From the sequence record PZ452581.1: 64,000 nt of DNA. One strand, given 5' to 3'. The position numbers were made by a program, and so were the translations under genes. Positions 52,485-62,520 of this stretch are shown piece after piece. This DNA comes from a phage. Each line of letters starts with the position of its first letter. The first letter of the stretch is position 1. The notes beneath the pieces were generated by a model. It ran no database searches and was not told the origin of the DNA. It saw only the letters and a list, made by a program, of their open reading frames with translations.

Positions 52485-52661
52485 TCAAGTATTGTAAAAC
52501 ATTCGATGCAATCGCTTATATTGTCGAATCATCTTTTTAGTAGGACGAGAATAAGTTCCTATACAAGTGGTCATATTAGGGTCAGTAGGACTTCCTTTAA
52601 TAAAAAGTTTCCAAACCTTACCACCATTTAACTTTTCAGTATAAATTAATTCGGTTTTCAT
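52485..52661 (-). CDS. Small basic protein (58 aa)
   Basis: Hand-translated ORF MKTELIYTEKLNGGKVWKLF...; TAATG overlap with the upstream 154-aa ORF. Confidence 0.4.
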   Translation of the reverse strand: MKTELIYTEKLNGGKVWKLFIKGSPTDPNMTTCIGTYSRPTKKMIRQYKRLHRMFYNT

Positions 52662-53125
52662 TAAAACGCTCGGTCAGAAAAAGAAATTTGAGTTTCAAGC
52701 CATTCAATATATTCTGCCGCGGCTTGCATTAAATTTCCTTCGTAATCATCAATATCTTTTTTCAACGCCGATTTAGATAATGCATATGAAATGCGTTCAC
52801 CCTGAAATCCAGCTTTAGGTTTATGAATAACTTGATCAATTCGTTCTACGACTTCTTCAATTTCGCCATTTTCTGCGGATTCAGTATTCCACAAGCACCA
52901 ATATGTAATTGGCTTATCATAGATGTTAATAATCTTTCCATCAGAAAGTTCAATTTCAATAATTCCAGTATCAGGTTCTATATCATCTTCGCATTCTTTT
53001 GCAAGTTCACGAACTTTAAAGACAGTACCTGCACTAAGTTCCGGCCAGTAATTACACAGCCCTTTATCAGCACGATTAATTCTAAACCACTTATCTACTG
53101 CAATCATACCCCATCTCCATATCAA
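52661..53125 (-). CDS. Hypothetical protein (possible Pin-position protein)
   Basis: 154-aa acidic ORF next to gene 49; name not assigned from sequence. Confidence 0.4.
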   Translation of the reverse strand: MIWRWGMIAVDKWFRINRADKGLCNYWPELSAGTVFKVRELAKECEDDIEPDTGIIEIELSDGKIINIYDKPITYWCLWNTESAENGEIEEVVERIDQVIHKPKAGFQGERISYALSKSALKKDIDDYEGNLMQAAAEYIEWLETQISFSDRAF

Positions 53126-53230
53126 TTAAGTCATTTATCGTCGGTTCATTATATACTGTTTCTTCATCAGTGTAAACCGGTTCTTCCGGCTCTGGCTCTA
53201 CTGTTTCCCATCTAGCCGCCCACCAAGGTT

Positions 53231-53551
53231 TTATAGCGTAATCCATTCTCGTACTGTCTGAGTTACTACACGTTCACGGGGCTCGACTAGTTCAACAGTC
53301 GGAACTGCATAATACCAGTCAGAATGGTAAGAACCTGAGCGAGATTCATTTACAGACACATGAACGTTATGTTTTGGACTAAAATAAACACACTGACGAT
53401 ATTGGCATTTACCATCTTGCACCCAGTCTTCTATTTCGATAGGTTTAAGATAATCCGAAAAATCGAAATCATAATTTTCTGAAAATGCATCATGGTCTTC
53501 GATGATTTCGCTCAGAACTGCATCAACATCTAATTTATTTTCAATATTCAT
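53231..53551 (-). CDS. Hypothetical protein
   Basis: 106-aa acidic ORF. Confidence 0.5.
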   Translation of the reverse strand: MNIENKLDVDAVLSEIIEDHDAFSENYDFDFSDYLKPIEIEDWVQDGKCQYRQCVYFSPKHNVHVSVNESRSGSYHSDWYYAVPTVELVEPRERVVTQTVREWITL

Positions 53552-53561
53552 TTTTCACCAA

Positions 53562-53771
53562 TTAATTTCGCAATTTATTAAGTTCTTCATAATCAATCCA
53601 GGATTCTAGTCCTGATGGCAAATCAGATTCAATTTCCCAAAGAAGCTCTTCAATTTTCTGAAGACGATCTAATTCTTCGGCTGGAATAGTAACCATTGAC
53701 GGAGTTCTTGATACACTAATATCGTAAATCATATTTACCCCAGTTTGACCATGCAATCGCCATATTTCCAT
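53562..53771 (-). CDS. Hypothetical protein
   Basis: 69-aa ORF. Confidence 0.45.
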   Translation of the reverse strand: MEIWRLHGQTGVNMIYDISVSRTPSMVTIPAEELDRLQKIEELLWEIESDLPSGLESWIDYEELNKLRN

Positions 53772-53950
53772 TTAGAAATAGACTTTTCACCGTTAGAATA
53801 ATAAACTTCGAGTTTAGCACGATTATTTTTAATTTGAATAACCTTTGCTGTCATCAAAGTTCCATACCCGTAATAAACTGCAACCTCATCACCTACATAT
53901 ACCGCGCTTCCGCGGTAGTCATGGATATAATCAGTTCCTTCGAGCATCAT
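53735..53950 (-). CDS. Hypothetical protein
   Basis: 71-aa ORF. Confidence 0.45.
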   Translation of the reverse strand: MMLEGTDYIHDYRGSAVYVGDEVAVYYGYGTLMTAKVIQIKNNRAKLEVYYSNGEKSISKWKYGDCMVKLG

Positions 53951-54211: not shown

Positions 54212-54454
54212 TTATTCCTTAATTCCTAGTACTTGTTTAAAAGTCTCGTCGTAATCAAGACTTTGGCCCGTTTGTTCTTTATGTTTGTATATAATATCAC
54301 TTACTTCTGATAGCATATTTTTATATGAACGAGTTAAAGCAGATTTAAGCACGCTGTATCTATCAGGAAATTTACCATGTTCATTATAATAAGCTATTGC
54401 TAATTCACGGACTGCCTTTTCAGCAGTCTCCATATATTCTTTACGCTTGGTCAT
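54212..54454 (-). CDS. Hypothetical protein (about 80 aa)
   Basis: Track ORF 54212-54613 trimmed to internal Met [15 protein letters not shown]. Confidence 0.4.
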
Positions 54455-54737
54455 TTTCTTCTCGGTCAAATCGGTGTTTACAATGGCGGCATTTATAACG
54501 AAGATTATTAGTCTGCCAATGGACCAATTGCACCTGTTCAGTTCCACATTCAGGGCAATTAGGAACGTTTTTAGAAGCCCTTTCGCGACGTTTAACCATA
54601 GCCATAATGGCATCCCATGCTGGAGGTTTAAAATCTAAATCGTCAGTAACTAGCAGTCCTTTATCAAACCCAACGCATGGAGTCCATTCAGGAAAATCTG
54701 AAGCTTCGGCAATATCTTCTAATAAACGCTTTTTCAT
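54441..54737 (-). CDS. Zinc-finger protein (CPECG...CRHC)
   Basis: 98 aa with two Cys pairs near the C-terminus. Confidence 0.5.
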
Positions 54738-55660
54738 TTCAGTACCTCAATAGCATTACGTAAACCATTTGCTTTGGCGGTTAAAGCCTTAAGAACTTTA
54801 GTATGCTCTTCAATCTGTTTTTCAACTTCAATCAAACGGGCACTGAGATATTCGCGTTCTTCTTTCATAGTATCATTCCCATGATTGGGCTTTGGCGTAG
54901 GTTTAAATTTATTAGGGTCCTTTAACTTAATAACAACTTTAGTTTCAAACAGTGAAAGACCATAATTCGTATTATCATCAAAGGATTCAACTACGTCCAT
55001 TTTAGACAATAACGTACGAAGATTATAAGTCAAAGAACGAATCGTTTTATTATGTTTATTAGCTTCACATGGTTTCATATATGGAAGATTTTTATATATT
55101 TCATGCGGAGCACAAACAATAATTGACAATTCAAATGGTCCATTCTGTGATGATGGAATGAATTTAGCCGTAACCCAATCTTTTACATTTACATTAATAG
55201 TACGATCATCGCCATGACAAAACAGTCTACGAGAATGCTTAAAAAGCATATTCACATTATTATTGAATTCGTGTGAAAATTCACTAGCAAATTTTTCTTT
55301 ACTATCTTTAGAAAACCATTCTTCTAAATAAGTTCTTTTCACGTCGTTAATAATATTAAATGTAACAACACTAGCATTTGATACATTAGTCTCAATGTAG
55401 CTTGGATACATAAATTTTTTAACATTATTAACAGCTATCACAGAAGATAGTAATCGGGAACGTTTGAACCACTCGAGCAAAGAACCAAGAGAATGTGAAT
55501 ACGCATTTTGTGTATCTTTACAAATATGGTTTTCCCATCCAATATAGTCTAAAAAATCACGAAGAATATTATTGATTACTGCTTTGTGTCCTATCTGATA
55601 ATTACGATGTTTAGTAATAAGACTATCAAAATAATCAATATAATGTTTACGAGTTTTCAT
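54734..55660 (-). CDS. Paralogue family member A (coiled-coil C-terminus)
   Basis: 308 aa; shares FK.SRLLS and LFK..R.L..GDD motifs with the next three ORFs. Confidence 0.6.
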   Translation of the reverse strand: MKTRKHYIDYFDSLITKHRNYQIGHKAVINNILRDFLDYIGWENHICKDTQNAYSHSLGSLLEWFKRSRLLSSVIAVNNVKKFMYPSYIETNVSNASVVTFNIINDVKRTYLEEWFSKDSKEKFASEFSHEFNNNVNMLFKHSRRLFCHGDDRTINVNVKDWVTAKFIPSSQNGPFELSIIVCAPHEIYKNLPYMKPCEANKHNKTIRSLTYNLRTLLSKMDVVESFDDNTNYGLSLFETKVVIKLKDPNKFKPTPKPNHGNDTMKEEREYLSARLIEVEKQIEEHTKVLKALTAKANGLRNAIEVLK

Positions 55661-55714
55661 GTTCTTCTCACTTGGTTAATGATTTATACTCCGAGCCATC
55701 CTTGGCTTTAAATT

Positions 55715-56716
55715 TTACTTAATTAACTGCAAAGCTTGTTCTAGACGATCAAGACGATTAACAGATTCTTCCCAAATCTTTTTAGCCTGCTCATATTCTT
55801 TCTGCGCTTTATTAGAAATTTCTAGAACTTCTTTATAAGCTTTTTCTAGTGCAATAACTTCTGGACGAATTTCTACCGGTTCAGGTGAATCATCAAGACA
55901 TTCCATTAGTTCCTCAAGGGTAGTTTCTTCTTTAGGAGTATTCACAATTTCATCACATTTTTGTTGGTAAATTTCTTTATCAGTCGGTGAGTACGCGCAC
56001 TTTACTTCACGAAGGCTAATTACGAGTTTATATCCTTCCCAACCGCATATATTTTTAAAAGGATATGTATGAATATTTTCTACTGTTTCCATACAAAGTA
56101 ATGCGGTCTCTAATTGACGAGTTATAGTGCTAGCAATTGAGAAAAATTTATTAATGTTCTTTTGGTTAGTTTCTGGTGTAAAAAATCCATAATTTACAAA
56201 AATAGCTACTTTATTTTTATCAAGTTCATATTCTTTTATGATAATCATATCAGAAGCCAAAGGATGAATTTGACGATAATCGCCATAACATAATTTAGAA
56301 GCTGATTTTAAAATTTGCTTCTTGAAAAGTCTGAAATTACTGATCCAACGACGAGTAAAAATATTCTCAGAGTCTTCTTTGACATTAAGATGATAAGAAT
56401 TAACATCACCGAACCAATTATATCCTACTACATCTTTGGTTCGTTTAATTTCTTTCCCAAAATTACCAAGAATATCCCGATTGACCAAATATGAAAGAAG
56501 ACGAGACTCTTTAAAGGTTTTCTTGATAACATCTTTATCTACACGGCTAGAAATTTTACGAATTTCATGAATAAATTTAGTAGAAGAAACAATACTTGCA
56601 TCAACACTATTGAGCCATTGATTGATAATAGAAAGAACGATATTTTGACCAAACATCGGTATAGCTTTATCATCAATAACGCTATTGAATGATTTGATAT
56701 ATTCGTTACGAGTCAT
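55715..56716 (-). CDS. Paralogue family member B
   Basis: Track ORF trimmed to Met MTRNEYIKSF with GAGGAG SD; about 333 aa; C-terminal coiled coil. Confidence 0.55.
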   Translation of the reverse strand: MTRNEYIKSFNSVIDDKAIPMFGQNIVLSIINQWLNSVDASIVSSTKFIHEIRKISSRVDKDVIKKTFKESRLLSYLVNRDILGNFGKEIKRTKDVVGYNWFGDVNSYHLNVKEDSENIFTRRWISNFRLFKKQILKSASKLCYGDYRQIHPLASDMIIIKEYELDKNKVAIFVNYGFFTPETNQKNINKFFSIASTITRQLETALLCMETVENIHTYPFKNICGWEGYKLVISLREVKCAYSPTDKEIYQQKCDEIVNTPKEETTLEELMECLDDSPEPVEIRPEVIALEKAYKEVLEISNKAQKEYEQAKKIWEESVNRLDRLEQALQLIK

Positions 56717-56744
56717 ATTAATCTCCTCAGTAGAAAGTAAGAAC

Positions 56745-56776
56745 ATTATACCACATCCTTGTGACGAAGTAAACTA
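56745..56776 (-). promoter_or_regulatory. T4-early-type promoter between family members C and B
   Basis: Minus-strand GTTTAC, 17-nt spacer, TGGTATAAT. Confidence 0.6.
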
Positions 56777-57799
56777 GTTTAGTGCATTTAGTGCATTGTT
56801 CAGTTTAGAACGCTGCTTTGTCAGATTTTGAACCCTTGACTGAGCTTGTTCTAACACCTTTTCAGCTTCTAGCACTTCATTGGTCGCTTTAACGAGTTCA
56901 TCATCTACTGCCTTAAGAGACTTCTCAATCGCGTCAGCGTGCCATTTTTCAACAGGTTTAAGACTCGGATTTTCAATAGGAAGAAAATTCACTTTATTGA
57001 ATTTCCATGCATCCTTATTACCTGAACTATACATCCAAAATTTAGGATCGTTTGATAAGTAATTGGATAAATTTAAATTTAAGTTATCTTGTACTTCTTG
57101 CTTTTTCTCTTGTGTAACTTCGTCCTTTCTCAAAAAATCATATTTAAATGAAACGATCATATCAAGTTCATATGATGTTGTATCTAACTTAAATCGTTCA
57201 AAACGAGGTAAAATCTTAGATTGAACAGCAGCAACAACATCCATATACTTAAATGCTTCTGTCAACTGTGATTTAAGGCATTCACAAATTGAAAGAGAAT
57301 TTTTAGTATTAGGCTTAAAGCTAATTCGTGCAGTTCTATTATTTTCTTTAGATGGTCTTACTTCCATTTGAAGAGTATAACCATCAAATTTCAGATTCTT
57401 TAAGTTAATATCAGAACCTTTTAATCGACTAGCAGTAGACAAAATTTGCTTTAATTGTTTACGGAATAGAGCAATAAATCTCCATTCAAGACGATAATGA
57501 TTTGGATTAAAAAATCCTGTTGATAAATCGACCTTACTCTGACCAACGCCTTGAACAAATAGAGGATTTTTATAATCAATAGTTTTACAGAAATCGGTGA
57601 GCTGCTCACGAGCAGTCATTTGAGTAATATACCCCGCTTTACTAAAATGACGTAACCATTCACTGCTATTCATATACTTAAAGTGAATATCACGATTAAC
57701 TTTATCAGGGTCTAAATTATTTTGGCACAAAAATGTCATAACATCACGAGTATAGCTGGCATTACGAACCATATCTTCAATTTGAGAACGAGTTTTCAT
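56774..57799 (-). CDS. Paralogue family member C
   Basis: 341 aa; motif ALFRKQLKQILSTASRLKGSD; C-terminal coiled coil. Confidence 0.6.
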   Translation of the reverse strand: MKTRSQIEDMVRNASYTRDVMTFLCQNNLDPDKVNRDIHFKYMNSSEWLRHFSKAGYITQMTAREQLTDFCKTIDYKNPLFVQGVGQSKVDLSTGFFNPNHYRLEWRFIALFRKQLKQILSTASRLKGSDINLKNLKFDGYTLQMEVRPSKENNRTARISFKPNTKNSLSICECLKSQLTEAFKYMDVVAAVQSKILPRFERFKLDTTSYELDMIVSFKYDFLRKDEVTQEKKQEVQDNLNLNLSNYLSNDPKFWMYSSGNKDAWKFNKVNFLPIENPSLKPVEKWHADAIEKSLKAVDDELVKATNEVLEAEKVLEQAQSRVQNLTKQRSKLNNALNALN

Positions 57800-57807
57800 G
57801 GTGTTCC

Positions 57808-58698
57808 TTAAGATTTAAGTAAATCAACAATTTTAATTAATTTTTCACGTTCAGATTTAGCTTTACTACTCAATCCAGATAGTCTGAAAATTTCATCGTC
57901 ATATTGTTGAATAGAAATATTCAGCTCTTCAATTTGCTTATTAAAATAATCAATTTGTTCAGAATGTTTTTCGTTACTACGAACTGGTGCAGGTTTTATA
58001 GGCAATTTAGTTGAACTGGATTCATCCGGGCGATAAATTAAAATACAACTTGAACCAATCGGACATTTAGCACCAGACACATATTCTAATGTTCCAGCTT
58101 CTTTTAAAATTTCAAAAGCTAAACAGAGATGATGACCCATATTGGCATAATCTGTAGAGTGAGCTCTGACGTAATAATCATCTCCACGAGTGCTAAATTT
58201 AAAGCATTTAAGGTCTTCTGTATTATTAGTTTTAAAAATCATTTGTTTATCTAGACCTTTAGCCAATCGAGCGCCTAATGCTAATAATCGTCGTTGATTT
58301 TCCCACAAATCTGCGATCATTTGGTCAAATGATAATTTCGGCATTAGTCGACCATAAAGGTCATATCCTTTATTATAATTGCGAAGGATTTCACTCGCAT
58401 TAATACGAGACAACGCTCCAATTTTATTAAGGGCTTTCATGATGCGATTAGATAAACTCATTCCAGATCCGTTTGTTCGCTGTAAATGTTTTTCTAATCC
58501 AAATCCAATATCAACTTTAAATTTATCTAAAATTTCAGCATGAACATCTCTGTCAATAACATTCAAATCCAAAGTTGGGTTAAATCTATGAAAAAATTTA
58601 TCTGGCTCTCCACGACGAAGTACAGTCCATTCATTCATCATTTTTTTATTAACTAAAGATTTAATTACTGCATTGACATTATTAATTACTACTGACAT
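57808..58698 (-). CDS. Paralogue family member D
   Basis: Track ORF trimmed to Met MSVVINNVNAV with GAGG SD; about 296 aa; C-terminal coiled coil. Confidence 0.55.
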   Translation of the reverse strand: MSVVINNVNAVIKSLVNKKMMNEWTVLRRGEPDKFFHRFNPTLDLNVIDRDVHAEILDKFKVDIGFGLEKHLQRTNGSGMSLSNRIMKALNKIGALSRINASEILRNYNKGYDLYGRLMPKLSFDQMIADLWENQRRLLALGARLAKGLDKQMIFKTNNTEDLKCFKFSTRGDDYYVRAHSTDYANMGHHLCLAFEILKEAGTLEYVSGAKCPIGSSCILIYRPDESSSTKLPIKPAPVRSNEKHSEQIDYFNKQIEELNISIQQYDDEIFRLSGLSSKAKSEREKLIKIVDLLKS

Positions 58699-58705
58699 AT
58701 TTTCC

Positions 58706-59113
58706 TCACTCAATTTCAATTTTACTAAATATACAGAATAAGATGGAACAGACTATATAAGCACCACACACAGATTGAACTAATACCATTCCAAAGAACC
58801 AAACAATATTATCAAACCATGTCTGTTTTACGTCGAAAGGACGTAAACTTACAGTAATATTATCACCTTTTTCTATTGAAGAATACATCTCTGGGGAAAT
58901 ATATTCACTAAATCTATAACCGTCTTTGAGTTCATATACAGCAATAAACGATAAACTAGACCCTTTTCCTTGTGTTCCTGTAATGGTATTAACTACAGTA
59001 ACATCATAATCTTTATAATGCATATAATCATTAATTGCGTAATAACCATATGCAACTACTACGCATAAACAACATATCAATAAATTCAATCTTTTAATTA
59101 TCAACCGTTTCAT
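58706..59113 (-). CDS. Membrane protein
   Basis: 135 aa with N- and C-terminal TM segments. Confidence 0.5.
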   Translation of the reverse strand: MKRLIIKRLNLLICCLCVVVAYGYYAINDYMHYKDYDVTVVNTITGTQGKGSSLSFIAVYELKDGYRFSEYISPEMYSSIEKGDNITVSLRPFDVKQTWFDNIVWFFGMVLVQSVCGAYIVCSILFCIFSKIEIE

Positions 59114-59168: not shown

Positions 59169-59696
59169 TTATGCGAGTACCGTCTTTAACCGTTCTTCAA
59201 ACTTCCGAAGAGTATTCTGGCGTTCAGCTCTTTGCTTTTTATAAGTTTCAATACGCTCTGAAATGAGAGTGTATCGTTCATTTACTGATTCTTTCATAAA
59301 ATCAGGAATTTCACGAGAAGCTTTAATCTCGTCAAATTTATCAATAACAGCTTGCTCTTCAGCAATTAAGTTATCATACATCAAAATATCTTTCTTGATG
59401 AACTCAATATCTTCTTGAGTTACACGAGATAATTTAGATGCTTTATCCTTTTTGTACTGTTCATTAGTATCACGAGACCAGTGTAATGTACGATTTTTAT
59501 TCGTATTTTTGTAAATTTCTACAATACCAATCTCATCGATAATAACGATCCAATTCCAACGAGATTTGTAAATTTGTCCTCCGTCAACCGTGATTTCACC
59601 TCCGATTGAGATGTCATTAAAGAACTTGCTTTGTGCTTCAGATTTAAATTTACCATCATTGTAGTTTACCAAGTTGAAAATATCTTTAGCATTCAT
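59169..59696 (-). CDS. Hypothetical protein (about 175 aa)
   Basis: Track ORF 59169-59756 trimmed to Met MNAKDIFNLV preceded by GGAGG SD. Confidence 0.5.
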   Translation of the reverse strand: MNAKDIFNLVNYNDGKFKSEAQSKFFNDISIGGEITVDGGQIYKSRWNWIVIIDEIGIVEIYKNTNKNRTLHWSRDTNEQYKKDKASKLSRVTQEDIEFIKKDILMYDNLIAEEQAVIDKFDEIKASREIPDFMKESVNERYTLISERIETYKKQRAERQNTLRKFEERLKTVLA

Positions 59697-59719
59697 TTTC
59701 TGTTCCTCCGTAGTTGATA

Positions 59720-59756
59720 GTTGTATAGTACCACAGAGGAACGGTCTTGTAAACAA
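59720..59756 (-). promoter_or_regulatory. T4-early-type promoter
   Basis: Minus-strand GTTTACAAGACCGTTCCTCTGTGGTACTATA plus conserved leader. Confidence 0.55.
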
Positions 59757-60160: not shown

Positions 60161-61129
60161 TTATTTCAGAAGAGTAACCTCAGCGATTTCTTCCCAACCG
60201 TTTTTGTCGGTCATAATAAAGTCAGCAAGATAAAGAGCAGTACGCAGTGAAACATTGCGTAAACGATTAACATTGACTTTCATCCATGATAATGCTTTAT
60301 AAGTTTCTTCATCAGAAAGACCGCGCTTTTGCATCATGTCAGTTGAAAGAATAACATCTTCAACCCTGACCATAATTTCTTCATTAGTGTGAACACCCAA
60401 ATCCAAATAAACTGAGCGGGACACTAATGCTTGTAAGTGTGGGGCAAGTTTAGTACCACGGTCTAATTCGCGGTCAATGTCAACGTTTGTGATAAAAACA
60501 ATCGTTCCTTTAAATTCAAACTCACGCTCAATGCCTTTTTCTTCTAAGTAAGAAGATGCAGTGCTCCAGCAGACTTTACGGGTCTCTCCAGTGTCCAGAG
60601 CAGCTTTTAGAAGATTAAGAATGTCCATATCAGAGAAAACATCCACATCATCAATCAAAAGGACAGAATTCTCTTCACGATTATTCCAAAGTTGTTCATA
60701 AAGACCGATACCGGAGATTTTACCGTTAATGCTTTTATATTCAATGTATCCAATATCATTTGCTTTATTTAAAGCTTTATCTAAAGAATACGTTTTACCA
60801 ATACCTGCTGCGCCAGAGATAATTAATGAACGAATGTTTCCGTTAATAATACCATTCGTCATCATTCCCATAACATTAAATCTTTTATTAATGCGGGTTT
60901 TCATATCTTCATATGATTCTTTAACTTCTTCAACTTTTACACCATCATATGAAATGTCTGATTTGTAAACCCAAACACCGCGACGTTTACCGTCAATTTC
61001 AACAAAAACTTTACCATCTCCTTGTGCATCTACCGGAGCATTGTCTGGGAACCATTCGCCTAAGAGCTCAAAAGTTCCAGAGATTTCTTTGCCAAAGTAG
61101 ATACCCTTATTGATAGTTACAGTTTTCAT
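60161..61129 (-). CDS. P-loop NTPase (AAA-like) of unknown function
   Basis: 322 aa; Walker A GAAGIGKT and Walker B VLLIDDVD after a ~95-aa N-terminal domain. Confidence 0.6.
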   Translation of the reverse strand: MKTVTINKGIYFGKEISGTFELLGEWFPDNAPVDAQGDGKVFVEIDGKRRGVWVYKSDISYDGVKVEEVKESYEDMKTRINKRFNVMGMMTNGIINGNIRSLIISGAAGIGKTYSLDKALNKANDIGYIEYKSINGKISGIGLYEQLWNNREENSVLLIDDVDVFSDMDILNLLKAALDTGETRKVCWSTASSYLEEKGIEREFEFKGTIVFITNVDIDRELDRGTKLAPHLQALVSRSVYLDLGVHTNEEIMVRVEDVILSTDMMQKRGLSDEETYKALSWMKVNVNRLRNVSLRTALYLADFIMTDKNGWEEIAEVTLLK

Positions 61130-61186
61130 TTTATTCTCCTTTGATTTGATAGGACTACTATAACATAGTCCTATCAGTTTGTATAC

Positions 61187-61387
61187 TTATTTTGACATTT
61201 CTTCGATGTCACGACGATACCCGTCACGAACTTCACGAAGAGCTTCAAGGCCACACATAGGCTCGATACCAGTAATGTGAACTTGATTAATCTGATACTC
61301 TACATCTTCTAACTGAGCGAAAACATAACGACGTTCAGCTGCACAACCAGATTTAGCTTTACCGAAACGTTTATTCAAAGTAGTCAT
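61187..61387 (-). CDS. Hypothetical protein
   Basis: 66-aa ORF. Confidence 0.45.
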   Translation of the reverse strand: MTTLNKRFGKAKSGCAAERRYVFAQLEDVEYQINQVHITGIEPMCGLEALREVRDGYRRDIEEMSK

Positions 61388-61420
61388 TTTGTATCTCCAA
61401 TTTACTCATTTGTTTTGATA

Positions 61421-61456
61421 GATCTATAGTATCAACAACTACAGACCATGTAAACC
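61421..61456 (-). promoter_or_regulatory. T4-early-type promoter
   Basis: Minus-strand GTTTACATGGTCTGTAGTTGTTGATACTATA, upstream AT-rich UP-like tract. Confidence 0.5.
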
Positions 61457-61480
61457 GTTTTATGAAAAATTTTTGAAATA

Positions 61481-61508
61481 AAAAAAGGGAGCCCGAAGGC
61501 TCCCTATC
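61481..61508 (-). terminator. Hairpin terminator downstream of 61507-62520 ORF
   Basis: Minus-strand GGGAGCC-UUCG-GGCUCCC followed by a T-run. Confidence 0.6.
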
Positions 61509-62520
61509 ATTTATAATAACTTCGGTGGTTTTCAAGATAGACCTTCTCAAGGAAGTCATCCCAGAAACTCATGTCTACTGTTTTAGGCATACCGTTCTTA
61601 GAAGCTTCAATAGATGCTGCTTCTACTTGATCGACCACATCTTCCAAAAACTCTTGAACCGTTTTAAATGGATGTTTACCCAACTTCACGTCGAGAATAA
61701 ATGGAGCATCTTGGAGTGGATAAACCAAGTCACCAGTTTTGTAAATTTCCAATAGTTGGAGTCCACCACGGCAAGCATGACTCAGAGCTTTCCAGTCAAT
61801 ACCTTCATTGGCTTCGGCCTTACGAGCACGTTCACCATATTCAGCATCTAATTTGTTCAGTGACTGCTTAAGCTCAATAAGAGAAAGCGTTGTCTGATAT
61901 TTACGACCCAACACAGTGTAGAACGTTTGTGGGCCTGTTTTCTCATGATTATGGAACACCCATTCACAGAATTCGTTTTCTGGAAGACGATGCTTAATAT
62001 CTTCAACTTTAGTGCGACGCTGCTTAATAGAACCATCTTCTTGGTAATCAATCCACTGCTCAGGGATTTGATTAACTACTTTCAATACATCACGTAATGC
62101 AGCCAAACGAGAACCCTTGACACCGTATTTAGAAGCTTGCTTGCGGACATATCCTAAATAGGATTTCATGTTAGTCGTATAAAAACGAGAACGGTTGTCT
62201 TGAATAAACTTCCACACATCAGGCAAATCAGATTTAACCACTAGTTCAGGTGGAGTGTGAAGCATATCCAATGCTACAGTTTCACCATCTGCTGCTAATT
62301 TAAAGAAATATTTAAGACTGTATAGTTCATGGTCAATATCATCTTTAGTGTTTTTAGATGATGTGTTGTTAGTGTTTTTACTCATGTGCTCTTTGACATT
62401 TCCGATAAGAATATCACGAGCAGGAGGAACAAAAATTTCTTTAAAATCTACATCAGATTCTGGGGTAGAAGTTCCATAAAGATGACTACCAAAATAGCTT
62501 TTCATTACTGTTTTCATCAT
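61507..62520 (-). CDS. Nucleotidyltransferase-fold protein (Pol-beta superfamily)
   Basis: 337 aa; N-terminal GSHLYGTSTPESDVDF fits the G[GS]x(9-13)DxD nucleotidyltransferase signature. Confidence 0.55.
   Translation of the reverse strand: MMKTVMKSYFGSHLYGTSTPESDVDFKEIFVPPARDILIGNVKEHMSKNTNNTSSKNTKDDIDHELYSLKYFFKLAADGETVALDMLHTPPELVVKSDLPDVWKFIQDNRSRFYTTNMKSYLGYVRKQASKYGVKGSRLAALRDVLKVVNQIPEQWIDYQEDGSIKQRRTKVEDIKHRLPENEFCEWVFHNHEKTGPQTFYTVLGRKYQTTLSLIELKQSLNKLDAEYGERARKAEANEGIDWKALSHACRGGLQLLEIYKTGDLVYPLQDAPFILDVKLGKHPFKTVQEFLEDVVDQVEAASIEASKNGMPKTVDMSFWDDFLEKVYLENHRSYYK

Follow-up and report, generated by a model that had tools for sequence, protein, structure and literature searches.

Four early genes of a T4-like phage, nrdC.3 to nrdC.6, are very probably ancient paralogues and include nrdC.5, whose T4 counterpart overcomes the Dsr1 defence

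T4 is the best-studied phage, yet of its non-essential early genes, roughly 130 in number, the majority have no known function. Do neighbouring genes of this kind belong together, and can what has been learned about one of them be extended to the others? This question is raised by nrdC.3, nrdC.4, nrdC.5 and nrdC.6 (in this order called A, B, C and D below), which we analysed in a stretch of 64,000 nucleotides of the phage sequence record PZ452581.1 (the window). The source phage is a T4-like Tequatrovirus: positions 54734-58719 share 96.9% DNA identity with phage T4, and the four genes are annotated beneath this match. The block is present in more than 500 phage records. The genes have been annotated for decades, and one counter-defence role, that of nrdC.5, is already published. 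A first-pass annotation made from the letters of the window had described four minus-strand open reading frames (ORFs), all of which were found where it had placed them (Table 1), as a tandem array of fast-diverging paralogues, each with its own early promoter, and had suggested that they are host-takeover or counter-defence factors.

Pairwise alignment, which had been proposed as a check of the homology, gave a divided answer. Raw BLASTP matched A to B with an E value of 5e-4 (24% identity over 271 amino acids, aa) and A to C with E 0.008, and the other pairs were not significant. No paralogue pair exceeds 25% aa identity; nrdC.3 is the nearest paralogue of nrdC.4, and nrdC.6 is the most divergent of the four copies. 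The databases keep the proteins in separate families. In PHROGs, A and B belong to phrog_1435 (E 6.3e-102 and 4.5e-167, respectively), C to phrog_2351 and D to phrog_2257 (E 3.4e-150). In Pfam, NrdC.4 is filed under PF26897, NrdC.5 under PF23882 (DUF7235) and NrdC.6 under PF26899. The assignment to PF26897 is the precomputed annotation that all B homologues carry, the model itself being absent from the Pfam set with which the window proteins were scanned; PF26899 is likewise precomputed on all 105 D homologues. Against PF23882, which has a gathering score of 30 bits, C scored 404.6 bits over its full length (E 4e-121); A reached 13.4 bits with its C-terminus only, which is below the cut-off, and B and D did not match.

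Comparison of family profiles with hhalign was more informative. With the families left unmerged, A and B were joined with a probability of 98.4% (E 4e-15), and A-C and B-C with 65-78% (E about 2e-5 to 6e-5), co-linear over 130-280 columns; the comparison of C with D was not significant. Among the 54 real-sized ORFs of the window, C was the top non-member match of the A/B profile, and reversed profiles scored 12-20, compared to 42 for A/B-C and 100 for A-B. One protein, P0225, was excluded from the alignment of C, because it is a natural nrdC.5::nrdC.3 fusion and would have linked the profiles falsely. Single bridge sequences from the phages Acj61, Klebsiella 311F, Enterobacter KMB19 and Citrobacter Moon provided two weak links only, and a scan of viral contigs with the bridge proteins returned close relatives only.

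Intermediate families were taken from 46 Straboviridae loci, which were located in viral contigs through the conserved neighbour NrdC.10, and from four annotated loci. The ORFs of 200-460 aa downstream of nrdC.10 were grouped together with the four families into 33 clusters, and all pairs of cluster profiles were compared. This gave a chain of links from D to cluster 6 (94.7%, E 6e-8), from cluster 6 to cluster 15 (85%, E 6e-6), from cluster 15 to A/B (94.4%, E 9e-8) and from A/B to C (85%, E 6e-6, 239 columns); C was linked to cluster 23 (94.6%, E 7e-8) and cluster 23 in turn to cluster 15 (82%, E 1e-5). When super-profiles were merged from these clusters, A/B matched C with 96.3% (E 1.5e-9) and D with 94.5% (E 8e-8), C matched D with 96.2% (E 2e-9), and A/B+C matched D with 97.7% (E 1e-12) over 227 co-linear columns. 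The reversed-sequence controls all remained at or below 0.5%. The A/B+C super-profile also matched the unmerged NrdC.6 family, with 94.6% (E 7e-8) over 122 co-linear columns in the N-terminal half, outside the coiled coil, and in this alignment two shared motifs were both in register. The match to an unmerged family therefore argues against an artefact of chimeric intermediates.

Motif 1 is the core motif that had been quoted in the first-pass annotation, and it was located in all four proteins. It is the most conserved segment within each gene's own family; in the NrdC.6 family the string NQRRLLALGARLAxGxDKQMxFKT is almost invariant. Near-invariant polar residues are found in NQRRL...G.DKQ of NrdC.6 and in RW...GD.RT of NrdC.4. 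By itself, motif 1 has no statistical significance for D. Motif 2, which lies upstream of motif 1, was not in the earlier description and was revealed by the alignment of the A/B+C profile with NrdC.6. The coiled-coil ends could be substantiated as well. In all four proteins the best heptad window is the C-terminal one, with L, I, V, M or A at a share of 0.71-0.93 of the a and d positions (shuffle p <= 0.016), and long terminal helices are predicted for NrdC.4 and NrdC.6. The 173-aa protein P0231 combines an unrelated N-terminal domain with a near-identical C-terminal coiled coil of NrdC.5 (QQDAIEKSIKAVDDELVKATNEVLEAEK...LNNALNALN), which points to a shuffling of the coiled-coil module among proteins.

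Structures were modelled with AlphaFold2 for NrdC.4 (predicted local distance difference test, pLDDT, 81; predicted template modelling score, pTM, 0.67) and NrdC.6 (pLDDT 78, pTM 0.66). Both models start with about six N-terminal helices followed by three short strands, continue with a helix-helix-short-helix unit that contains motif 1 and its G-D turn (B 145-146, D 148-150), and end with a beta-beta-alpha-beta-beta module, a low-confidence linker and the terminal coiled coil, which is one helix of 48 residues in the B model and two helices in the D model. The secondary-structure strings of B and D agree at 253 of 296 positions (z = 4.2 versus element-shuffled controls). In a Foldseek search of BFVD, both models matched the same six uncharacterised Straboviridae proteins of 304-335 aa (from Pectobacterium PM2, Enterobacter IME523, Acinetobacter Acj9, Acj61, Klebsiella Mineola and Yersinia fHe-Yen9-01) with a probability of 1.00, E values of 1e-7 to 5e-4, 300-370 aligned columns and template modelling (TM) scores of 0.31-0.48. 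We regard this fold evidence, drawn from predicted models, as supportive of one family rather than conclusive. PDB sequence searches found no solved structure of any relative.

All four proteins appear to follow a common plan: an N-terminal helical domain with the two motifs, the beta-beta-alpha-beta-beta module, a flexible linker and the C-terminal coiled coil. Because sequence, structure and locus point in the same direction when taken together, the four genes are in our view very probably true paralogues, that is, homologous and anciently duplicated members of one superfamily. On this point the profile comparison through intermediate families and the structure models bear out what had been proposed from the letters. 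The joining of the split database families into one superfamily appears to be new.

What is known about the function of the array comes from T4 NrdC.5 (DUF7235, PF23882; PMC9391042), of which C is the orthologue. Srikant, Guegler and Laub (eLife 2022, PMC9391042) evolved T4 on cells carrying toxIN, and one clone with compensatory deletions no longer plated on E. coli ECOR17. Plating returned once dsr1 had been deleted from ECOR17, and dsr1, when cloned, gave MG1655 protection against the evolved clone. This clone had lost nrdC.5, which is called an early gene there, and expressed T4 nrdC.5 restored its plating on E. coli with ECOR17 dsr1 (PMC9391042). According to a 2026 preprint (PMC12803255), Dsr1 is a SIR2 NADase whose tetratricopeptide repeat (TPR) sensor is triggered by the phage major capsid protein; the sensor is common to Avs7 and to many proteins with other effectors. 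The suggestion of counter-defence factors therefore stands for nrdC.5, the T4 orthologue of which is 96% identical to C and overcomes Dsr1 (PMC9391042). The predicted domain plan, the two motifs, the coiled-coil end and the locus of T4 NrdC.5 are common to A, B and D, in contrast to the family assignment: these three are below the PF23882 threshold and are filed in PF26897, PF26899, phrog_1435 and phrog_2257. The literature that we searched contained nothing on the mechanism of NrdC.5, on the function of nrdC.3, nrdC.4 or nrdC.6, or on their kinship to nrdC.5, and the text of the EVADES anti-defence compendium does not mention nrdC. We have little doubt about an anti-defence role for at least NrdC.5. 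That the role extends to NrdC.3, NrdC.4 and NrdC.6 is, in our estimate, an evenly balanced matter.

Informative matches in searches of Pfam, NCBIfam, PADLOC and PDB sequences were confined to families of unknown function; they included neither an enzyme nor a defence-system family, nor a structural or housekeeping family shared by all four proteins. Matches to designed helical repeats, BrxC, SEC10/PgrA and the like were rejected as helical or coiled-coil noise; in PADLOC, the only match was B to BrxC at the level of a coiled coil (E 0.0045, 13 bits), with none for A, C and D. Many GenBank records label nrdC.3 to nrdC.10 as 'thioredoxin'. A thioredoxin or glutaredoxin identity was rejected as well: none of the four proteins contains a CxxC or matches a thioredoxin family in Pfam, and the predicted topologies of NrdC.4 and NrdC.6 are not thioredoxin-like. 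The label on nrdC.3 to nrdC.6 appears to be an error propagated from the gene names of the form nrdC.x.

The promoter arrangement differs from what had been expected. Only two early-type promoters were found, one ahead of nrdC.8 and one ahead of nrdC.4. The latter, the internal early promoter that had been pointed out in the first-pass annotation, is real in form and is conserved in all six Tequatrovirus loci checked, namely T4 (L008) and five others (L005, L023-L026). It heads a transcription unit of nrdC.4, nrdC.3 and downstream genes, and the promoter ahead of nrdC.8 likely drives the tightly packed nrdC.8-nrdC.7-nrdC.6-nrdC.5 as one unit. The stop of nrdC.7 is separated from the start of nrdC.6 by 7 nucleotides (nt), and the stop of nrdC.6 from the start of nrdC.5 by 8 nt; thus there is no space for a promoter ahead of nrdC.5 or nrdC.6. 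The gap of 54 nt between nrdC.4 and nrdC.3 contains a late-like TATAAAT, the sole promoter-like site ahead of nrdC.3, and a short hairpin. No middle promoter with a MotA box was found in the block, and sigma-70-like matches as a class showed no excess (34, versus 30 +/- 5.5 in shuffled sequence). The block consists of two early transcription units, not four, and the claim that every gene has its own early promoter has to be given up. The good Shine-Dalgarno sites, on the other hand, were confirmed by a ribosome-binding site ahead of each of the four genes. For nrdC.4 the true start is the ATG at 56716 and not that of a longer ORF of 343 aa, because the longer ORF begins inside the -10 element of the promoter and the ATG at 56716 has a GAGGAG ribosome-binding site.

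The array is a property of a narrow group of phages. A HMMER search of 1.84 billion proteins with the NrdC.5 profile gave 13 representative clusters at E <= 1e-3 and no new diversity. The NrdC.5 family is thus extremely narrow, and the families of B and D are likewise limited to T4-like phages. Among 45 Straboviridae loci, 12 had the order D-C-AB or D-C-AB-AB, 24 a single member and 2 two members, and in 7 none was detected. The loci with three or four copies belong to the coliphage clade of Tequatrovirus, Dhakavirus and Gaprivervirus. In other Straboviridae genera, the corresponding site between nrdC.10 and nrdC is occupied by one copy and only rarely by two; Mosigvirus has only two. Expansion to three or four copies is thus a trait of the coliphage clade alone, an observation that appears to be new.

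In comparisons with T4 or vB_VIPECOOM02, the ratio of nonsynonymous to synonymous substitution rates (dN/dS) was 0.08-0.35 for the four genes, as against 0.00-0.07 for endoVII, nrdC, nrdC.8, nrdC.9 and nrdC.10. The four genes are thus under purifying selection, relaxed 5-10 times relative to that on their neighbours; gene-wide positive selection was rejected on these values. Tequatrovirus orthologues of NrdC.5 are nearly invariant in the motif core (about aa 60-180) and in the coiled coil and vary at residues of about 21-60 and 180-280; B and D are similar in this respect. For nrdC.3, three allelic classes were found among Tequatroviruses, with 92-99%, 60-63% and 55-57% aa identity and a dS between classes of about 1.1. 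These are old alleles exchanged by recombination and not the result of rapid local change, so that, with the low dN/dS among close phages, calling the genes fast-diverging was an overstatement.

The array locus is recombinationally active, as seen from phage ACG-C40 and from the proteins P0225 and P0231. In ACG-C40 (L007 4302-5027, corresponding to about 54734-57799 of the window) a natural deletion runs from the N-terminus of nrdC.5 to the C-terminus of nrdC.3; an ORF of 71 aa from the nrdC.5 N-terminus and the last 22% or so of nrdC.3 remain, nrdC.4 is gone, and only nrdC.6 is intact. In P0225 (299 aa), residues 1-129 are 95% identical to NrdC.5 145-273 and residues 124-299 are 58% identical to NrdC.3 134-308, with nrdC.4 deleted. 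Since the junction is out of register, P0225 looks like an illegitimate deletion rather than a recombination between paralogues. The existence of such natural deletions and fusions, together with the loss of nrdC.5 from the evolved T4 clone, means that the array genes are dispensable in the laboratory.

How could such proteins act? A possible interpretation is that NrdC.3 to NrdC.6 are made early, before the late capsid protein appears, and that each would oligomerise through its coiled coil. The oligomer would then bind a host defence protein directly and keep it inactive, as DSAD1 does to DSR2. The scaffold would be the conserved motif core, and target specificity would come from the variable surfaces at the N-terminus and ahead of the linker. 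The paralogues may have specialised on different targets or target variants, with Dsr1 as the target of NrdC.5. We lean slightly towards this combined reading of a homologous early array of oligomeric, direct blockers of defence proteins with one target per paralogue. Direct binding as the mechanism, taken for itself, is a tentative analogy to which we give a little less than even weight. DSAD1 of SPbeta inhibits DSR2 by binding (PMC10981675, PMC11087589). It is likewise encoded by a phage and directed against a defence-associated sirtuin, which it neutralises and which senses a late structural protein. DSAD1 is the best precedent for the proposed mode, in which a sensor protein would be bound and its structural trigger could not activate it. 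No sequence or fold similarity to DSAD1 was found in the four proteins. The dmd-tifA-adfA 'anti-TA island' (toxin-antitoxin) of T4 (PMC9391042) offers a comparison at the level of the locus: it is likewise early, non-essential and clustered, it disables specific defences and widens the host range, and like nrdC.3 to nrdC.6 it is lost or amplified by recombination. Unlike the paralogous expansion of a single ancestral gene proposed here, it is made up of separate inhibitors side by side.

Several points weigh against the direct-blocker reading. The unmerged profiles of A/B and D did not match (1.6-15% probability); A/B and D are linked only by way of intermediate families and of profiles that were merged, a step that can carry errors along. 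In BFVD, neither the NrdC.4 nor the NrdC.6 model directly matched the family models of the other, so that their predicted fold link runs only via third-party neighbours at a moderate TM of about 0.45, and the structural argument covers these two of the four proteins. The dN/dS values below 1 contain no gene-wide arms-race signal. An experimental function is available for only one of the four genes; direct binding, oligomerisation and paralogue-specific targets are what we infer, and motif 1, with its near-invariant polar residues, could also be read as a site of catalysis or ligand binding. The first of these points, the hhalign probability of at most 15%, is also what speaks for the view that the proteins are not homologous at all. 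In this view the motif and the coiled coils would have arisen by chance or convergence among helical proteins, and merged chimeric intermediates would be the source of the profile links. Raw BLAST is at noise level for D, and natural chimeras, P0225 and P0231, do exist at the locus. Moreover, a leave-one-family-out mixed hidden Markov model run against 255 window ORFs, which recovered A and B strongly, placed D first at E 0.099 only and lost C (E 3.2); this model was not used either way, because mixing diverged families dilutes the profile. Against this view stand the match of A/B+C to the unmerged NrdC.6 family and the reversed controls of at most 0.5%. The independent AlphaFold2 models agree in the order of their elements and in the place of the motif within the structure, the Foldseek neighbours are the same over 300-370 columns, and length class and locus are shared. 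We therefore consider non-homology very improbable.

If the genes are homologous, nrdC.5 could still be the only counter-defence gene among them, the others having drifted to early roles in host takeover or regulation or being redundant, near-neutral copies. It is the only member that has been tested experimentally, an identity of at most 25% leaves enough divergence for a change of function, and parts of the array have been lost in nature (the ACG-C40 deletion, the P0225 fusion and the two-copy Mosigvirus). Near-neutral copies are, however, difficult to reconcile with purifying selection on all four genes in hundreds of Tequatroviruses; the retained domain plan, both motifs and the coiled coil suggest a shared mode of action, and the deep allelic replacement of nrdC.3 is a pattern typical of host-interaction genes. 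A role of nrdC.5 alone is unlikely in our view, though by no means negligible. The proteins could also be enzymes rather than stoichiometric binders, with the conserved polar residues of motif 1 as the active site; their substrate might be the defence protein or the signal that activates it, which they would modify or cleave, or else metabolites related to NAD+. In favour of this, motif 1 hardly varies and abounds in R, K, D, Q and N, two neighbouring genes look enzyme-like (nrdC.10 with a P-loop, nrdC.11 as a nucleotidyltransferase), and, according to a preprint, the NARP pathways of other phages overcome NAD+-depleting systems, DSR1 included, by enzymatic means. We judge this reading to be improbable. 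A structural or assembly role, finally, is suggested by a fold like that of the lambda gpU tail-terminator and tail-completion proteins, which was found with low scores and without a sequence relationship. The four proteins differ from the gpU-like ones in being two to three times larger, in their additional helical and coiled-coil domains and in their early expression, and the combination of a strong fold match, late expression and presence in the virion was not found. This identity was rejected, and we hold it to be scarcely credible. The weak tail-terminator-like core might instead be a decoy that resembles a structural protein.

A more specific form of the direct-blocker reading is that NrdC.3 to NrdC.6 are modular and oligomeric and block bacterial sensors for structural proteins of phages, each paralogue being directed against a different TPR-sensor protein of the Avs7/Dsr1 type with NADase, nuclease or kinase effectors. 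We regard this as doubtful. If it were true, the expansion from one to four copies would track the sensor diversity in E. coli, and the swappable coiled coil seen in P0231 and the exchange of nrdC.3 alleles would permit a quick re-targeting of the scaffold. Even in the less specific form, kinship of NrdC.3, NrdC.4 and NrdC.6 with the anti-Dsr1 protein would make them three specific anti-defence candidates, which are apparently new. The step from a single ancestral gene in most Straboviridae to the coliphage array would be a concrete case of counter-defence diversification by duplication, and three or four database families, all of unknown function, become one through this result. The array is also relevant to host-range prediction for therapeutic T4-like phages, since the loss of nrdC.5 alone narrowed the host range of T4 in the published experiment (PMC9391042).

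Table 1. Genes, shared motifs, coiled-coil segments and promoters of the nrdC.3-nrdC.6 block (positions in the window)
Feature	Position	Strand	Remarks
nrdC.3 (A)	54734..55660	-	ORF, 308 aa; 96.8% aa identity to T4 NrdC.3
nrdC.4 (B)	55715..56716	-	ORF, 333 aa; homologues carry PF26897
nrdC.5 (C)	56774..57799	-	ORF, 341 aa; 96.2% aa identity to T4 NrdC.5
nrdC.6 (D)	57808..58698	-	ORF, 296 aa; homologues carry PF26899
Shared motif 1, nrdC.3	55205..55249	-	aa 138-152, MLFKHSRRLFCHGDD; helix, then G-D turn
Shared motif 1, nrdC.4	56276..56332	-	aa 129-147; helix 132-142 in the model and turn with invariant G145
Shared motif 1, nrdC.5	57410..57472	-	aa 110-130
Shared motif 1, nrdC.6	58249..58308	-	aa 131-150; helix 135-145 in the model and invariant G148, D150
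Shared motif 2, nrdC.3	55412..55471	-	aa 64-83, WFKRSRLLSSVIAVNNVKKF
Shared motif 2, nrdC.4	56453..56518	-	aa 67-88, TFKESRLLSYLVNRDILGNFGK
Shared motif 2, nrdC.5	57584..57649	-	aa 51-72, HFSKAGYITQMTAREQLTDFCK
Shared motif 2, nrdC.6	58369..58434	-	aa 89-110, ALNKIGALSRINASEILRNYNK
C-terminal heptad (coiled-coil) segment, nrdC.3	54737..54883	-	last 49 aa; a/d occupancy 0.79, shuffle p = 0.001
C-terminal heptad (coiled-coil) segment, nrdC.4	55718..55864	-	last 49 aa; a/d occupancy 0.71, p = 0.006; single helix 285-332 in the model
C-terminal heptad (coiled-coil) segment, nrdC.5	56777..56923	-	last 49 aa; a/d occupancy 0.93, p < 0.0005
C-terminal heptad (coiled-coil) segment, nrdC.6	57811..57957	-	last 49 aa; a/d occupancy 0.71, p = 0.016; helices 242-272 and 277-295 in the model
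T4 early-type promoter	56745..56774	-	GTTTACT-N17-TGgTATAAT; 29 nt ahead of the nrdC.4 ATG
T4 early-type promoter	59725..59754	-	GTTTACA-N17-TGgTACTAT; 29 nt ahead of nrdC.8
Late-promoter-like TATAAAT	55682..55688	-	putative; 22 nt ahead of the nrdC.3 start

Some annotations of nrdC.6 differ from the ORF in Table 1. In the T4 RefSeq record the gene is annotated as 275 aa from an internal Met (L008 6067-6894, compared with 57808-58698 of the window). A truncation of nrdC.6 in T4 was considered and rejected: it is only apparent and a choice of annotation, as the intact ORF of 296 aa with a GAGGA ribosome-binding site is present in T4. In Shigella phage Sf25, P0001 is called as a protein of 378 aa, which consists of nrdC.6 and upstream sequence.

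The array is flanked upstream by nrdC.7 to nrdC.11 and downstream by nrdC.2, nrdC.1, the glutaredoxin gene nrdC, pin and the gene for endonuclease VII. The nrdC.2 gene shares only about 75% identity with the versions of T4 and vB_VIPECOOM02, and the adjacent nrdC 98-100%; nrdC.2 and nrdC.3 together (54441-55660) look like a recombination cassette. NrdC.8 (59169-59756) ends in a charged helical segment (...ERIETYKKQRAERQNTLRKFEERLKTVLA) and has no significant relationship to the NrdC.3-6 family. The nrdC.10 gene (60161-62520 with nrdC.11) is extremely conserved, 483 records having an aa identity of 99% or more, and it reaches as far as Vibrio, Aeromonas and jumbo phages; NrdC.10 is elsewhere named a P-loop NTPase, and annotations give nrdC.11 as a nucleotidyltransferase.

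Outside the coliphages, in Jiaodavirus, Karamvirus and other genera, the single superfamily member has a conserved gene of 256-284 aa directly upstream (cluster 2: L010 10227-11045, L011 10683-11456 and 18 further loci). No profile link between this cluster and the NrdC.3-6 superfamily was found. The upstream genes of Jiaodavirus and Karamvirus are 72% identical, yet the superfamily gene that follows is B-like in one and D-like in the other. In the region of pin and 49.1-49.3 (52661-53125, with small ORFs at 52485-53950), the ORF content of the window differs from that of T4, and in related phages one of the small ORFs found there bears the annotation 'antitoxin from a toxin-antitoxin system' (L005 6414-6623, L007 5712-5939).

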